From a virus (lineage: Duplodnaviria > Caudoviricetes), in the IMG/VR virus record IMGVR_UViG_3300031994_000035, positions 59,840-123,839 of that record: DNA of 64,000 nucleotides. One strand, written 5' to 3'. Positions 4,055 to 59,863 of the stretch are shown here, piece after piece; the stretch's first letter is position 1, and every line of letters starts with the position of its first letter. The position numbers and the translations under genes were made by a program. The notes below the pieces were generated by a model. The model ran no database searches and was not told the origin of the DNA. It saw only the letters and a program-made list of their open reading frames with translations.

Positions 4055-4549
4055 ATGGAAAATTTTAAGACATTCAAAGAATTCAACTTTGACAAAAATG
4101 GATACACGGACCTTACAGGTGACAAACAAGAAATAAAGGATTTTCTTATAAAAAACAAAGACTCTCTTCCTGTAAAGGCTGAAATAATGGCAAATGCAAC
4201 AGAATCAGATACAAAGCTTGCAATGCTCTATAACATCTACGGTCTTGTAGACGACTTCGAAATTATAGGTGACGACTTGTATATCCTGTTCTATCCTGTA
4301 TATTTCACATACTACAAATATCATTTTACAAGACCTCTGATACTGAAACATTCCGAGACCGGGAAAAATCTACGTTTCGACAAAATGTTTTCATTCATAG
4401 TACCATACCTGTCAGACCTGCTTACTGGTGCTTTGATGAACGAAGGCTTTTCAAAAGACAAGGCCATAGAGTGGATGAATAAATCTACCAACAAGGAATA
4501 CTTTAAAAAAATGACTGGTAGACAAACAGTGAATCCATATGAAAAGTAA
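4055..4549 (+). CDS. Putative internal head protein (capsid-targeting-like N-terminus MENFKTFKEF)
   Basis: N-terminus resembles the T4 internal-protein leader MKTFKEF/MKTYQEFIAE. Confidence 0.55.
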   Translation: MENFKTFKEFNFDKNGYTDLTGDKQEIKDFLIKNKDSLPVKAEIMANATESDTKLAMLYNIYGLVDDFEIIGDDLYILFYPVYFTYYKYHFTRPLILKHSETGKNLRFDKMFSFIVPYLSDLLTGALMNEGFSKDKAIEWMNKSTNKEYFKKMTGRQTVNPYEK

Positions 4550-4611
4550 AAAGAAAAATTTGAAAAGTTTCGTAATATAGTTATTAAATGTTGTTTATTT
4601 AATTAAACTAT

Positions 4612-5350
4612 AAAGTCAATAACTTGAAAAGATTTGACAGGAGTTCGAGTTCAAACTATACTCCAATAAGTACATTGAAATAATGATAATTTTATACAGC
4701 TTGACGGTCTGAAACCTAAGTTTAAATAATTTACTGGAAGAACGCCTGCTTTGTAAAGATGTAGATTGCAATAATTCAATCGTCTGATAAGTAGGATATT
4801 ACAGCATCAAGTTGTATTTTAGAAATAATTTTGTGTGCATAGGCGAGAAATCCCTATGTAGAATCTCCTAAATTCGGTGGAAATCCTTATCCTGATATAG
4901 AATCCTAAAACGGTTATGGATATTTTCTATAAAGAGTAGTCGGGAAGAAAGCACTAACTAATAATGTGTAAGGACTATACCGAGCGAAAATGAGATAAAT
5001 ACGATGCCAATAGGAGCATAGAAGTAGTATTACTGTTACGCAATATACAGAATCTTATAATCGTGTAGACTGAAAGGGAGATACATAAAGTTGGAATTGA
5101 GATTTAAGCACCTTTGATGGAGAGGGACGTGAAATGATACTCAGCCTATATGGAATAAGTCACGTTGAAATAGCTAAAATATATCTCTACTTGCAAGAAT
5201 TTCAATATGGTAATATCAGTCAAAACCACAACAAACAATAAGGTTGAAAATCCGAGATTGTGTAAATCGAAAATGTAATTACTTGTCATTAAGTCTTGTA
5301 ATGAATTGTTTGTCTATGGTAACATAGTGTGGTAGGGTTTCACAGACCCA
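4612..5350 (+). ncRNA. Free-standing structured RNA with a group I intron (IC3-like) catalytic core
   Basis: P2 4837-43/4853-59; P3 ATCTCC 4863-68/GGAGAT 5077-82; P4 TTCGGT 4873-78/ACCGAG 4979-84; P5 TCCTTA/TAAGGA; P6a ATGAGAT/ATCTTAT; P7 GACTGA 5068-73/TCAGTC 5216-21; P8; P9 ACCACA/TGTGGT with a GTAA tetraloop; candidate terminal G at 5335; ends approximate. Confidence 0.8.
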
Positions 5351-5418
5351 TTTTAAAACAGTACATTAAAATTTTATGATTTATAAATTCTGAGATGTAG
5401 AAGTTAGAATAAACAGAC

Positions 5419-6315
5419 ATGAAAGTAAAAACAAGAAAATTTCCAGAATGTAATTACAATGCGACATGGATTGACGGTAAAACATTTCGAATGGGAGATG
5501 GTTTTGCTAAAGAATTACCAGCAGACAAATCTGAATTTTATGACATTGCCCTTGGCACAATGTGTAACCTAAATTGTCCGTTTTGTTATGCAGAAGCATC
5601 AAACAACGGTAAATTCTATGATGATATTTGTCAAAAGGCCGAATTGTTTTTTGGTAACATGTCAGAAAACGACAAGCCGTTTCAGGTGGCAATAGGAAGT
5701 TTGGGTGAACCGACAATACATCCGGATTTTATCAATTTTCTAAAAACAATTGCAAAATTTGATATTGTTCCTAATTACACAACAAACGGAATAACATTAA
5801 CAACAGAAAACGATTTCCGTGACGAATTGTTAAGTGTTACAGATAAATTATGTGGCGGTGTTGCCATAAGTACAAACGAATGGAATACAAAGATTCAAGA
5901 AACGTGGAGAAAGGCAGTAGAAAACTTATCATACTTTACAAAGACAAAGATAAATTTACACTATGTTGTTTCAGATGAGAACTCTGTTGTTAGGTTTAAA
6001 GAAATTTATGACGAATATAAAGATAGAATCTTTTATTTTGTATTACTGCCAATGATGGATTCCGGACGTTGTACACAACGGTATAGCGAGAGCGCTTTTA
6101 AAAAATTGGAAACTATGTGGAATGATTTCGATGTTTCAAAAATATCATTTGGTGCTCATTTTTATCCATTATTGAAAGAAAGCAAAATAATTAATTGTTC
6201 ATTGTACGAACCTGAATCATTTAGTAAAAATTTGATTCTTGACAATCCAATAACGATTACAAGAAGTAGTTTTGATTTAACAGTTTTAAAAACAATAGAA
6301 TATGAAAAGAAATAA
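5419..6315 (+). CDS. Radical SAM protein
   Basis: CNLNCPFC (CxxxCxxC), GEPTIHPDF and YTTNG motifs. Confidence 0.92.
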   Translation: MKVKTRKFPECNYNATWIDGKTFRMGDGFAKELPADKSEFYDIALGTMCNLNCPFCYAEASNNGKFYDDICQKAELFFGNMSENDKPFQVAIGSLGEPTIHPDFINFLKTIAKFDIVPNYTTNGITLTTENDFRDELLSVTDKLCGGVAISTNEWNTKIQETWRKAVENLSYFTKTKINLHYVVSDENSVVRFKEIYDEYKDRIFYFVLLPMMDSGRCTQRYSESAFKKLETMWNDFDVSKISFGAHFYPLLKESKIINCSLYEPESFSKNLILDNPITITRSSFDLTVLKTIEYEKK

Positions 6316-6895
6316 AATTTTATTCACGTTTAAAATTCAGAGTTTTTCTGATGTTATTACAAACAGTTCAAGCGAATTGTTTGTATTTGACGACAAAGGA
6401 GATGTAGAAAAAGTAAAAGAAATCCTTGATGGTCTTTATCCTGATTGGAGAAGCGAATATGAAGAGCCTGTCTTATTGAAAGATGCGGATGATGCTTCTG
6501 TTGAGTTATATGCTGAATATCTATTGCCAAGGGGCTGGGATTACGACTATCGTGGAGAAACAACAGAAGAATGCAGAAATCTTCTTCGTCAAGATATTAA
6601 ACATTTCTTTAATGAAGACGCAAAAAGATTTTATCCAAATATTGATACTTGGGACCCGAAATATAATTGGAGTAATGATAAAAAGTTTAAAAATAAATTA
6701 TACGAAGATTTAACAAGAGAAGAAAGGAGTGAAATATGGAGTAAACACGAACTCGAGTGTGATTATGATGAAGTTGTAAAATACTTAAAAGATAATAGAC
6801 AAAATGAAGTATTATTATTTTCATTAGGTGATAATCCTGATTGGGATATGCAGAAAAAACTTCAAACAGTTGCTAACCGCTATCATTTAGGTTAA
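6302..6895 (+). CDS. Protein with N-terminal IQSFSDVITNSSSELF motif
   Basis: Overlaps the radical SAM stop; leader shared with 6912. Confidence 0.8.
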   Translation: MKRNKILFTFKIQSFSDVITNSSSELFVFDDKGDVEKVKEILDGLYPDWRSEYEEPVLLKDADDASVELYAEYLLPRGWDYDYRGETTEECRNLLRQDIKHFFNEDAKRFYPNIDTWDPKYNWSNDKKFKNKLYEDLTREERSEIWSKHELECDYDEVVKYLKDNRQNEVLLFSLGDNPDWDMQKKLQTVANRYHLG

Positions 6896-6911
6896 AATTT
6901 TAATATTAAAA

Positions 6912-7286
6912 ATGAAAAAGAGATTTATTATACAAATTCAGAGTTTTTCTGATGTTATTACAAACAGTTCAAGTGAGTTGTTTGCTGTTGGAGATGTAAA
7001 CAAAACAGCAAAAGAAATAAAAAAATTGCTTATACAAAAGTTTAAAGAATCAGGCGATACGTGTAGTGGCATGGAAGGATACATAGAAGTTACTCCATAT
7101 GATGCACCTGATGATATTAATGATTTTGTAATTACAAGTGATAATCTTAAATATGCACGTTATCTTAAAACTTGGAAGAAACTAAATATACCACAAAAAG
7201 GTTTTTTCATTGATATAGATAAGGGTTTATATAATACGATAGAGTTTATCAGAAATGAATTAAAAGGATATTTATTAGATTATTAA
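6912..7286 (+). CDS. Protein with N-terminal IQSFSDVITNSSSELF motif
   Basis: Same leader, unrelated body. Confidence 0.8.
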   Translation: MKKRFIIQIQSFSDVITNSSSELFAVGDVNKTAKEIKKLLIQKFKESGDTCSGMEGYIEVTPYDAPDDINDFVITSDNLKYARYLKTWKKLNIPQKGFFIDIDKGLYNTIEFIRNELKGYLLDY

Positions 7287-7376
7287 AAAGTATACTTGTA
7301 AAGTAAAAATGAAAAAGAGATTTATTTTACATCAACAAATTAATATTAACTTTAAAATTAAATAATTATGGAAATA

Positions 7377-8715
7377 GTTCCAAAATCCATAGAAATATGG
7401 AAATTGTTTATAATTTAACAATTACCGGGTGAACTACAACGCCCTCTATCCCATCAAAAAAGACTTTTGGGAATGCTTTTCTCATGATGTTATAGCTTCC
7501 GTTCACATCGGCATTTATTTTGTTTCCGTTTTCAGAAACAAACAAGCCTCGATGAACACGTTTTCCTTTATAAACATCATGCTTTCCAATTTCTTCCAAA
7601 TCAAGGAAACTACATTTGGATGTGTAGCTTTCCTCGTTTGTAATTACTTTTATCCCCACCTTTTCGCATTTGTATGAAACCATCTCGACAAATCTACTGT
7701 GAGGTATTTGTATGAAGTTCTGGTTGTTTCTTGAACCGGCGTTGCAGTCTTGCTTCCATCCGTCGTTCTTTCCTATAACCAGAACAGATATGCTCTTGTC
7801 TTTTAAATCATTTACTATTCTCTTGCTTGCACGATGCAAGTAGTTGTCAACCTTATTATTCCTTTTGTTTGTAAGTCTTCTTGTCCTGTGTGAATGCTTT
7901 TTCTTATTGACTTTTTCTAATTTTGACTTATATTTTGCAAGTTCCTTGTTATAGAACTGGTTAATCGATTTCAACGGCTTTCCGTTTATAATTGTCGGCT
8001 GTTCTCCTGATGAATATGTTACTGTAGCAAGATTACTTACTCCTAAGTCTATTGCAGCTATATTCTTGTTGAATTTTACTTTTTCTACATCTTCAATGGT
8101 ATATATTACTTCAATAACATACTGCTCCGTCTTAGGGACAATCCTTATGCAATTTATTGATTTAAAGTTATTTATCTTCGTATAAAATTCTATATCTACT
8201 TTTGACAGTTTAATTTTATGTGACTTTTCAAAAACCTTCTTTGAAATCGTCTGGTTGTTGAATGTTGCAACATACCTCCCATCTTCCTTATGTAAGAATT
8301 TCGGGAACTTGACGTTTTTGTTATCAATATTTTTTGAACGAAGCATTCCGAAAAAAGAATTGCAAGTTGCATGAACTGATCTTAAAGTCGCTTGCGCAAC
8401 TTTTTGAGGAAGCTGTTTGAAGCATTCTTCATTTTTCATGAAGAAATATGAATCATTCAAAATATCATATGTTTTACTTTCCTCGTATTCCTTACGTATC
8501 AGATACAATGTCCTGTTATATATGTTCTTTGAAGAAAAGCATAGTAAATCACATTCCTTATATAAGGGATGACTTCTTTTAATAATATGTCTTTCCACCA
8601 ATTGCATTTCTGTATAATGATACGTTTACTATTTTATTTATATATTTTCAAAAATACTTGATTTTTAATTTGTTAAATAAATAGAATTATTTCTATAAAT
8701 TTTCTATAATGTTAT
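7377..8715 (-). mobile_element. Non-autonomous IS200/IS605-type element (tnpB only)
   Basis: tnpB with no tnpA; right end inferred near 7377, where a short ORF start (ATG GAA ATA at 7368) is interrupted; left end approximate. Confidence 0.6.
7408..8607 (-). CDS. tnpB: TnpB RNA-guided nuclease (clade with IVIGKN / EESYTS rearranged RuvC-II)
   Basis: AAIDLGVSNLA, VLVIGKNDGWKQ, EESYTSKCS and NADVNGSYNI motifs. Confidence 0.9.
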   Translation of the reverse strand: MQLVERHIIKRSHPLYKECDLLCFSSKNIYNRTLYLIRKEYEESKTYDILNDSYFFMKNEECFKQLPQKVAQATLRSVHATCNSFFGMLRSKNIDNKNVKFPKFLHKEDGRYVATFNNQTISKKVFEKSHKIKLSKVDIEFYTKINNFKSINCIRIVPKTEQYVIEVIYTIEDVEKVKFNKNIAAIDLGVSNLATVTYSSGEQPTIINGKPLKSINQFYNKELAKYKSKLEKVNKKKHSHRTRRLTNKRNNKVDNYLHRASKRIVNDLKDKSISVLVIGKNDGWKQDCNAGSRNNQNFIQIPHSRFVEMVSYKCEKVGIKVITNEESYTSKCSFLDLEEIGKHDVYKGKRVHRGLFVSENGNKINADVNGSYNIMRKAFPKVFFDGIEGVVVHPVIVKL

Positions 8716-40803: not shown

Positions 40804-41910
40804 ATGCATATCTATAAAAAGAAATCATTAAAGATGACCACTCTTGAGGTGGTGTTCAATGCAGGTTCTCTTTATGAGCAGAAGGGACGATATGGGACTA
40901 TGCACCTGATGGAGCATTTAATATGCGGCACATTCAGCGACCTTCGTCCGGAACTGACAAAACGGGGAATCGCATGGAATGCCGCGACAGGTGACGAATA
41001 TGTTAAATTCTATTGGACGGGTCTTGAAAGCCAGCTGTCCGATATAAAGAGCACGTTGATCCATAGGGTGACAGGCGATATCACCAAGTATGTCACAAGG
41101 GAGGAATTCGAAAAGGAACGCTCGACGGTCTATCAGGAATATTGCGACGCCTTCAATGATCCGCAGTGCGCTGCGTACCTTAACCATATCCGCAAGAAGT
41201 TCAACTACTACTGTCCTATAGGCAGGCGTGAGGATATTTTAAACTTCACATATGAGGATATGGTTGAGGTGAAGAGGGAATTCTTCATGAAACCCGCATG
41301 CATCATAGAGGTCGGCCCTACTAAAACGGACATCAGGGATGTCGAATATGAGGAGAAAAGACACAAGTTTAAAAAACTCATGTACCGTGAGAACTGGTAT
41401 GCTCCTTTGGAGAACACAGGTCCTTCCGAGAAATATGTCATAGGAATGCTCAGCAAGAAACTGATTCCGAAGAAAGACTATCCTGCTATGAAGGTCGCCA
41501 TCATGATGCTTAACAACAACCTTGAGTCGCCGTTGTACAAGGAGATTCGTGAAAAACGAGGGTTGAGCTACTATTCTGTCGGCGACTTGATGACAATGGT
41601 GAACGATTCGATATGCGTGTTCTATGCTGCGACAACGGATTCCCATATAGACGAACTTGTTTCAGTGTATGCAGACTTTTTCAGGGATACCAAGAAATAC
41701 ATCAGCAGGAACAGGTACGAGGACATCATATCCAATATCAAAATCAATGAGGAGAAACGCGAGGTGCTGAGGTATGCCAACATACAGGACCTTGAAAGAA
41801 AGAGAATGGTGCGTATGCCTAAGGACATTGACAAGGTGACATATGAAAATGTCCTGGAAGTTGCCGAGAAATACCTCAACCTGAATAATTTGGAAAGTTT
41901 CGTAATCTAA
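40804..41910 (+). CDS. M16 (pitrilysin-family) zinc peptidase
   Basis: GTMHLMEHL (HxxEH), NAAT and SPLYKEIREKRGLSY motifs. Confidence 0.92.
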   Translation: MHIYKKKSLKMTTLEVVFNAGSLYEQKGRYGTMHLMEHLICGTFSDLRPELTKRGIAWNAATGDEYVKFYWTGLESQLSDIKSTLIHRVTGDITKYVTREEFEKERSTVYQEYCDAFNDPQCAAYLNHIRKKFNYYCPIGRREDILNFTYEDMVEVKREFFMKPACIIEVGPTKTDIRDVEYEEKRHKFKKLMYRENWYAPLENTGPSEKYVIGMLSKKLIPKKDYPAMKVAIMMLNNNLESPLYKEIREKRGLSYYSVGDLMTMVNDSICVFYAATTDSHIDELVSVYADFFRDTKKYISRNRYEDIISNIKINEEKREVLRYANIQDLERKRMVRMPKDIDKVTYENVLEVAEKYLNLNNLESFVI

Positions 41911-41953
41911 TCTGCCAAATGTTGTTTATTATATTAAACTAAATTGTTTCAAT

Positions 41954-42139
41954 ATGTCGAAGACAAGCAAATGGAATAAGGAATCCAGTGATCAGAAGCT
42001 GACAGCGTCTGACTATATGACCTACCGCTTCAAATGCAGCGATTCGGCATTGAAGCAGGTTGGAAGCAAGACGTCTGTTACGTATTGCAAGAAGACTCAA
42101 AAACCATGCACGGTCTCGAATTGTTACAGGATAAAATGA
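41954..42139 (+). CDS. Small Cys-containing protein
   Basis: 61 aa after the promoter motif at 41922. Confidence 0.55.
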   Translation: MSKTSKWNKESSDQKLTASDYMTYRFKCSDSALKQVGSKTSVTYCKKTQKPCTVSNCYRIK

Positions 42140-42144
42140 TTCGG

Positions 42145-59689: not shown

Positions 59690-59863
59690 ATGAAACAAGG
59701 ATTGACAAAACGATATAGAAAATTTGGATGGGAGTTCTATGAGCTTCTTGACTGGCGCAGATCAGGAAAAGTTCGTAAAAGCTACAAAAAATCCTTTAAC
59801 GGAAGAGCTAGAGCCAATGACAAGAAAGCTGTCAGAGATATTGTATTATCTGAAATTTGCTGA
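59690..59863 (+). CDS. Small basic protein, 57 aa (not in the ORF track)
   Basis: ATG directly after the repeat: MKQGLTKRYRKFGWEF...RDIVLSEIC. Confidence 0.7.
   Translation: MKQGLTKRYRKFGWEFYELLDWRRSGKVRKSYKKSFNGRARANDKKAVRDIVLSEIC

Follow-up and report, generated by a model that had tools for sequence, protein, structure and literature searches.

A group-I-derived RNA without a host gene in the genome of a tailed phage

The intergenic gap and the RNA it holds

The DNA analysed here, referred to as the window, is a 64,000-nucleotide stretch of a tailed phage genome (IMG/VR record IMGVR_UViG_3300031994_000035, positions 59,840 to 123,839). Near its start, a gap at 4550–5418 is bordered by a radical SAM gene on one side and an open reading frame (ORF) of 164 aa on the other. 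Within this gap, a putative RNA of about 530 bases (approximately 4823–5352, plus strand) shows homology to other phage loci, and the comparison of these sequences gives good support to the view that it is a group-I-derived RNA without a host gene.

No ORF longer than 51 aa is found in 4550–5418 with genetic code 11, with code 4, or with TAG or TAA read as glutamine; a hidden coding sequence was rejected, since none of the alternative codes yields a long frame. ARAGORN, run with or without its intron option, detects no tRNA in this interval, and Rfam 15 gives no known RNA family at the gathering score on either strand, the slightly wider interval 4450–5500 being equally empty. Minimum free energy z-scores of the RNA region are weak and uninformative (−1.56, −1.17 and −1.15). 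The nearest relative by neighbouring genes, locus L003 (fetched loci carry the prefix L), encodes a radical SAM protein 91% identical to that of the window. It is without the whole RNA region, synteny with the window beginning only at 5403, and its downstream radical SAM gene is complete despite the absence of the RNA. A decayed copy of the ORF that occupies the same place in L003 was considered for the gap and rejected, as tblastn was blank. Matches to an exact 16-mer of the window P7 fall in coding or 5′ untranslated sequence only and were judged to be chance, as were the matches in L013 and L100.

A family of oversized phage tRNA introns

A candidate motif spanning J3/4, P4 and J4/5 (AAATTCGGYGRAAAYCCT; J and P denote joining and paired segments) was scanned against viral contigs and retrieved 39 loci. 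The 12 bases upstream of the motif (GTAGAATCTCCT), which lie outside the search pattern, are present in about 32 of the 39, and GTGTAGAGACT sits 140–280 nt downstream of the motif in the same loci. About 20 loci are insertions of 390–600 nt within tRNA anticodon loops (ARAGORN -i), the split host tRNAs including Leu-UAA (after U34), Arg-UCU, Ser-UGA, CAU and Thr. These hosted copies lie in tRNA clusters of 100–400-kb phage contigs, mostly from the rumen. By blastn, the window aligns with about 30 phage loci in five blocks (4817–4890, 4950–4995, 5053–5098, 5188–5240 and 5304–5336) with E-values down to 1e-49; the intron of tRNA-Thr in L050, for example, is 88.5% identical over 148 nt. The homology ends at the terminal G, that is, where the hosted introns end.

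The Rfam group I model RF00028 gives no match to the window RNA at the gathering score, at E ≤ 10 on a 1-kb slice, or genome-wide. Eight tRNA-hosted relatives likewise go unscored at E ≤ 10, so the silence of the model is uninformative for the window RNA. RF00028 does score a 229-nt tRNA-Arg intron in L038 (46.6 bits), which shares with the large family the layout P3-AAA-P4-GAAA-P5, the R element GUGUA.AGACU and the J8/7 sequence AAAGAGA followed by a UAGUC-type strand. Contig L038 (IMGVR_UViG_2799112330_000002, 410 kb) carries this small Rfam-detectable tRNA-Arg(UCU) intron at 2032–2260.

A hand-built structure was carried over from the window to an alignment of 24 sequences (A1). In this fold 94.6% of cells are paired, versus 35–43% when partners are slid, and 40 of 76 pairs show double-sided changes; none of 500 shuffles reaches the observed value, a control which overstates independence because the sequences are related. 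P7 and P3 form the group I pseudoknot, which is covered by this covariation, with compensatory changes in three of the five P7 pairs. In hosted copies, the guide triplet beside P2 changes in step with the final three bases of the exon (GAG/CUU, GGA/UCU, GUG/CAU), and a U.G pair stands at the splice site; the length of the P1 loop ranges from 9 to 36 nt across the family. The P2 helix of the family is capped by a GAAA loop, and the P8 sequence CCUAAG/UAUGG corresponds to the 11-nt tetraloop receptor known from IC3 introns of the Azoarcus type. Based on the covariation-backed pseudoknot fold, the junction match to the L038 intron, the guide–exon covariation and the P2 and P8 motifs, we regard the family as group I introns of the IC3-like kind found in tRNAs, into which large peripheral segments have been inserted.

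The introns of tRNA-Thr CGU in L030, L050 and L055 appear to be spliced after C rather than U (ACUC|AUG..., guide GAGU), in agreement with the C(−1) class that Williams (2020) reported, and they have their terminal G four bases earlier than other members do.

Fold of the window RNA

All features of the RNA lie on the plus strand. The internal guide TTTGTGTG (4830–4837) occupies the same place in A1 as the P1 guide of tRNA(CAU) introns. It is followed by the P2 hairpin (4838–4858) with a bulged C4844 and a GAAA tetraloop at 4847–4850; seven of its eight pairs are double-changed and 100% of cells are paired. The segment 4863–4888 corresponds to the family-search motif and comprises the P3 5′ strand, J3/4 (AAA), the P4 5′ strand, J4/5 (GAAA) and the P5 5′ strand, a layout that parallels the Rfam consensus ...CuGuCgAAUUGCGGgAAAcC.... 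P3 is formed by 4863–4869/5076–5082 and P4 by 4873–4879/4978–4984. The interval 4889–4984 contains a variable P5 extension and the 3′ strands of P5 and P4, together with a conserved hairpin P5c (4951–4969) having an 11-nt loop and double changes in three of four pairs.

The P6 region (4985–5063) consists of P6 (4985–4987/5061–5063), P6a (4990–4996/5052–5058) and a variable tip, with five double-changed pairs. Next come J6/7 (TG), the P7 5′ strand T5066-[A5067]-GACTG, J7/3 (AAA) and the P3 3′ strand GGGAGAT (5064–5082; alignments A1 and A2, the latter described below), P7 being 5066–5072/5217–5222. The P8 region (5083–5211) has a helix at 5091–5098/5198–5205, supported by A1 covariation, a variable tip and a conserved ACTTGCAAG at 5189–5197. 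It leads into J8/7 (AATAT, 5 nt), the P7 3′ strand CAGTC-A and J7/9 (AAA) at 5212–5225. P9 (5226–5336) is a three-way junction of helices 5226–5230/5328–5332 and 5232–5239/5305–5312 and a hairpin at 5314–5327 with a GTAA loop at 5319–5322. In the alignment, G5336 coincides with the terminal (omega) G, the base with which the introns of hosted relatives end. The 3′ tail (5335–5354) reads as a terminator-like hairpin, GGGTTT-CAC-AGACCC, followed by ATTTT.

A preliminary description of this locus, made from its letters alone, had listed group I helices P2–P9 in correct order and a layout like that of tRNA introns (IC3 type). All these helices could be located and are backed by A1 covariation, and the five-block homology to tRNA-hosted introns bears out the layout. 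The same description saw no interrupted ORF or tRNA and no convincing U.G P1; the coding, ARAGORN and tRNA-half searches were all negative, no homologous exon was found, and a P1 candidate, GCAU at 4804–4807, is non-conserved. The description had also named the lack of a group I model hit as an outcome that would refute it. There is indeed no RF00028 match, but this carries no such weight, the model being blind to the entire family.

Altered core of the window copy

The core of the window RNA departs from that of the family at the active-site junctions. Its J6/7 reads TG where the family has TGTA, and its J8/7 reads AATAT where the family has AAAGAGA (gAAGAUA in Rfam), so each is two bases shorter. 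P7 reads GTGTAGACTG / CAGTCA in the window and GTGTAGAGACTG / CAGTCC in the family. With the window strands being T-[A]-GACTG and CAGTC-A, the closing G-C pair of the family has become U5066-A5222; among sister copies this pair is U-A in 13 and U.G in two. The guanosine-binding pair G5068-C5221 is kept, with A5067 bulged 5′ of G5068. The altered reading of P7 given in the preliminary description stands, but the first pair and the bulge, which it took to be missing or re-registered, are both present in a new register as U5066-A5222 and A5067.

The window retains 108 of the 111 near-invariant core positions (family columns), and its three deviations fall within the range of 0–6 seen in hosted introns, while its peripheral domains have diverged past alignment. 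Of the three changed columns, two fall in the P8 receptor, in its 5′ half, which reads ACATAAAG versus ACCTAAG in 37/37 relatives. A5085 in this half occurs in the window only; the half is degenerate and its partner, TATGGT, is intact. The third change is G5224A in J7/9, where 37/37 relatives have G. Given the 108 retained positions, the window copy does not appear to be decaying, and the earlier notion of a domesticated RNA agrees with this count.

An exon-less class

The derived J8/7 string was scanned in viral contigs and the derived P7 string in metagenome contigs. About 16 further distinct copies carry the same short J6/7 and J8/7, and no split tRNA surrounds any of them. By hand tally, tRNA-split copies number 0/16 among those with the short J8/7 versus 21/25 among those with the canonical one. 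The window copy bears the hallmarks of this class: it has GTGTAGACTG (short J6/7) and GGTAAT(A/G)TCAGTCA (short J8/7, with A following AGTC), and it does not split a tRNA. Around it, ARAGORN -i detects no interrupted tRNA, the 3′ flank is without a T-arm, and a profile of 19 tRNA 5′ exons gives nothing in 4700–4810. A remnant of a tRNA 5′ half at 4740–4807, proposed by eye against L022, was rejected, as the 19-exon profile is blank even at E 1000.

In an alignment of the exon-less set (A2), 85% of cells are paired, versus 37–45% with partners slid, and 23 pairs are double-changed, P3 and the receptor pairs being under-counted, as the row of the window stands one column out of register. Three types can be distinguished. 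Type A, comprising the window, L092 (= L101) and L028, has the guide UUGUGUG and a tail hairpin with a T-run and lies between protein genes; this combination of a CAU-type guide and a terminator hairpin between protein genes, outside any tRNA array, makes it a rarer type. Type B (L061, L068 and others) has the guide UAUGAG and the tail hairpin GGUAUU-CUCAU-AAUACC and is located upstream of tRNA-Leu. Type C (two copies in L041, L071 and others) has the guide CAUUG, a tail with CAAUG and mostly A at the omega position and lies between whole tRNA genes. L028, a type A member by guide and tail, retains a 7-nt J8/7 (AATGAGA), and its G-binding pair is lesioned.

The large-family copy at L038 2377–2883, a neighbour of the small intron, lies between tRNA halves, has a J8/7 of 4 nt and carries a guide which cannot pair with the exon; such a copy may stand midway between an intron and an exon-less RNA. 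In L041 (IMGVR_UViG_3300028591_000072, 302 kb), the region 568–1889 has the order Arg-ACG, copy 1, Arg-UCU, copy 2, and both tandem exon-less copies have A at the omega position.

Identical peripheral domains occur across different guide and tail types in A2 (the P8 tip of L071, L093 and L077 and the P9 tip of L074 and L068), which suggests that modules are exchanged by recombination. The type A RNAs of L092 and L028 are non-syntenic with that of the window, in phages whose shared proteins are 30–78% identical to those of the window phage; these non-syntenic positions in related phages suggest that the RNA gene moves as a cassette. The motif GTTCTTTGAAAA recurs 10–30 nt before the guide in L092, L028, L041, L059, L071 and L086, and the window has GTATTTTAGAAA at the corresponding position. 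This motif may mark a site of processing or belong to a promoter.

The 3′ tail and its possible pairing with the guide

The tail of the window RNA can fold into a local hairpin, GGGTTTCACAGACCC (5335–5349), of −6.3 kcal/mol, followed by ATTTT. The tails of L092 (GGGTTTCACAAACCC, then T8) and L028 (AAGGAT-TCACAC-ATCCTT, then T6) share the hairpin and T-run, and we therefore consider the tail a conserved terminator-like hairpin starting at the omega G.

The loop and 3′ arm of this hairpin (5341–5346, CACAGA) are complementary to the guide at 4830–4835, giving in the window a 6-bp helix with one G.U and four Watson-Crick pairs. At 4831/5345 the window has U.G, L092 has U-A and L028 has G-C, and in types B and C guide and tail match by pairs specific to each type. 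Because AT-rich flanks distort a generic "best helix" score, guide and tail were compared in a restricted way, by cognate and non-cognate runs: the mean Watson-Crick runs are 4.8, 5.8 and 5.0 for cognate combinations and 2.3–4.4 for non-cognate ones. Among possible partners of the guide, the tail is the best conserved; at the splice-site position, the guide–tail helix has C-G or A-U in the class, not U.G, and the window has C-G. The tail would then occupy the substrate site and imitate ligated exons without reacting, a reading with moderate support across the class and no statistical significance for the window copy taken singly.

The 5′ leader and possible start sites

Upstream of the conserved RNA lies a window-specific leader (4690–4822, plus strand), with a predicted fold of −29.1 kcal/mol (z −2.07). 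It includes a helix 4694–4704/4807–4817 (−12.2 kcal/mol) and a segment, 4706–4716, complementary to the tail at 5336–5348 (−15.7 kcal/mol, reached by 1.2% of shuffled leaders). In the preliminary description these formed a 5′ domain of about 200 nt and two long-range clamps of one RNA. The complementarities exist; as clamps they have no counterpart in any relative. No homologue of the leader was found in any fetched locus or in viral contigs, and the closest relatives, L092 and L028, are without it; the 5′ domain is thus unsupported as part of the RNA. The tail strand of the supposed closing clamp, GGTTTCACAGACC, is explained more simply by a local hairpin and T-run as in L092 and L028. The leader and clamps probably stand outside the conserved design. 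If transcribed, the leader could, as a speculation, compete with the terminator hairpin.

Several sequences in this region are candidates for a role in initiation. A 58-nt repeated element at 4553–4610 (plus strand), a candidate regulatory or promoter motif, is 83% identical to a copy at 41883–41941; it takes in the promoter that the preliminary description placed at 4591. Both copies follow the stop codons of two unrelated genes, and the core 22-mer occurs twice versus 0.02 occurrences expected. The second copy precedes a 61-codon ORF (41955–42140) in a GC-richer gap of 600 bp. A sigma-70-like TTGACA-17-TATACT at 4634–4662 (plus strand) agrees with 11 of 12 consensus positions, and a degenerate TAnnTTTG-like box at 4815–4822 is a further start candidate; the window shows no enrichment of the TTTG/TAnnTTTG pattern typical of Bacteroidota. 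Motifs resembling a Shine-Dalgarno sequence (GGAG/GAGG/AGGA) precede 3% of the ORFs of at least 120 aa in the record versus 9% in the background, and an A-rich patch at −14 to −11 is found in their place. The host would thus appear to initiate translation without Shine-Dalgarno sites, as members of the Bacteroidota do, which makes the relevance of the sigma-70 match at 4634 doubtful.

Genomic surroundings

The window makes up the latter half of its IMG/VR record, which is 123.8 kb long and has an estimated completeness of 49%, and the protein encoded just upstream of the gap is also recorded on a 255-kb contig. At 5419–7286 (plus strand), the radical SAM gene overlaps the following ORF, and the block is conserved in L003. 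The ORFs 6302–6895 and 6912–7286 have a common N-terminal stretch originating from a near-exact DNA repeat (6335–6384 / 6934–6984).

The minus-strand gene at 7408–8607 encodes a TnpB-like protein of 399 aa with OrfB_IS605 and Cas12f1-like TNB domains (phrog_506, transposase). Its omega (guide) RNA would be expected just past its 3′ end, at about 7290–7407. An IStron (PMC10690162) was considered for the RNA and ruled out: the TnpB-like gene is on the opposite strand and 2 kb away, and the three intervening genes are syntenic in L003, which lacks the RNA.

Interpretation and alternative explanations

With a probability of roughly two in three, we favour the view that the window encodes a selected, stable, structured RNA in a non-splicing role, which is group-I-derived, free-standing and docked on itself. 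The segment from about 4823 to 5352 (plus strand) would be a free-standing RNA gene descended from the oversized anticodon-loop introns of related large phages, with splicing lost. Its 3′ tail would form a hairpin, doubling as a terminator in the window's type, whose loop and 3′ arm would pair with the guide in place of the 5′ exon, with C-G where a splice site needs U.G. Such a particle would be closed on its own tail, like an unreactive product complex, and might serve as a scaffold, decoy or binding platform linked to tRNA biology.

Several points weigh against this interpretation. The window-only mutations in the P8 receptor half and at G5224 could mean early decay. The T-run of the window, ATTTT, is weak, and its guide–tail match is not above chance, 46% of shuffled tails equalling it. 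A candidate U.G P1 can be drawn between GCAU (4804–4807) and the guide (4833–4836). The contrast in tRNA splitting between short and canonical J8/7 has a nominal p of 5e-8, which is overstated because the sequences are related, as they are in the A1 shuffle controls. The large-family copy in L038 has a short J8/7 yet is still flanked by tRNA halves, so this trait is not strictly tied to exon loss. Finally, a tree built without the trait columns is unresolved, a single origin of the class being neither supported nor rejected (approximately unbiased test, p 0.55).

The window copy might instead be a dead relic, a neutral pseudogene which lost its exons by deletion or recombination and is disappearing. 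We regard this as unlikely. It would account for the missing exons, the shortened active-site junctions, the window-only hits in the P8 receptor and at G5224, the absence of the RNA from otherwise syntenic L003 and a thermodynamic z of only −1.15. A relic would not be expected to keep 108 of 111 core bases, like hosted introns, while its periphery diverged beyond alignment, and the same derived core recurs with compensatory changes in about 16 diverged copies, along with a conserved tail hairpin and guide complement. Only a slight chance is given to a core that is re-tuned and not dead, a ribozyme with a new task in which the tail or leader acts as an autoinhibitory switch. The guide is complementary to the CAU anticodon loop, so that, with the tail displaced, it could bind tRNA(CAU) of host or phage in trans and direct cutting, ligation or reverse splicing; alternatively, the RNA could process its own 3′ end at G5336.

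Two further proposals make use of the leader. We give little credence to the architecture of the preliminary description, an RNA of about 740 nt from about 4612 with an added 5′ domain and two closing clamps. Both complementarities do exist, the 5′ domain has a z of −2.07, and upstream there are a repeated motif and a site resembling a promoter; yet the two clamp helices together would form a pseudoknot, neither has a homologue, and the tail has its own conserved hairpin as a better partner. Moreover, the 3′ strand of the first clamp overlaps AAGTTGTAT..., a stretch also present upstream of the type B RNAs, where it is part of a TAnnTTTG promoter-like box. Very unlikely, in our judgment, is an ordinary cis-splicing intron in an unrecognised small RNA gene, with exons ending at U4807 and beginning at G5337 and the complementarity 4706–4716/5337–5348 serving as a helix of the mature host RNA. 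The P1 between GCAU and the guide GUGU is in register, with U.G at the usual guide position and a 25-nt loop as in L024 and L025, inside the family range; the omega G and G5068-C5221 are kept, and the leader–tail energy of −15.7 kcal/mol is matched by few shuffles (1.2%). Against such splicing, P10 cannot form, the supposed host RNA has no homologue and Rfam is blank for 4450–5500, L092 and L028, the nearest relatives, agree with the window copy in guide and tail but are without the leader, and J8/7 is two bases short, as in the copies without exons.

Relation to known RNAs and significance

GOLLD and ROOL are highly structured phage noncoding RNAs of several hundred nucleotides, often found beside tRNAs. 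The window RNA is likewise large, structured and phage-borne, but it is of clear group I ancestry, judging by its fold, and no sequence or Rfam relationship to them was found. To our knowledge, the sole established group-I-derived RNA with a non-splicing job is the lariat-capping ribozyme GIR1. Its core is rearranged around a retained G-binding pocket and has no standard P1; as part of twin-ribozyme introns it is nested inside another intron of eukaryotic rDNA, where a homing-endonuclease mRNA follows it, and it forms a double pseudoknot (P15), has no P2 and carries out a proven branching reaction (PMC2219692, PMC4167309). The window RNA resembles it in the altered core around a kept G-binding pair and in the apparent lack of a standard P1. 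It differs in being a free phage gene without an ORF, with P2 and the ordinary topology kept.

The bacterial tRNA group I introns (doi 10.1101/2020.01.27.920355; PMC3984707) share with the phage family the core order, the junction motifs, the GAAA loop of P2 and the 11-nt receptor of P8. The family is also without an endonuclease ORF, and its hosted members sit at the same sites, e.g., after U34 of tRNA-Leu(UAA), and have a U.G P1 in which guide and exon covary. Unlike those introns, the family is two to three times larger (390–600 nt), phage-borne and invisible to RF00028, and the window copy is exon-less, with C-G for U.G and J6/7 and J8/7 each two bases shorter. In full-text searches of the literature, we found nothing on exon-less group-I-like phage RNA genes or on an oversized phage tRNA-intron family.

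The comparison thus points to a whole class of phage RNA that would combine a group I fold without an exon, a co-ordinated change of the active-site junctions and its own tail in the substrate site. Beside it stands a large parent family of tRNA introns unseen by the standard Rfam model, which implies that the genomes of such phages carry mis-annotated tRNA genes and intergenic gaps. If expressed and stable, these RNAs would represent a natural experiment in the retirement or re-purposing of a ribozyme and, in phages rich in tRNA genes, a novel type of large, structured RNA.

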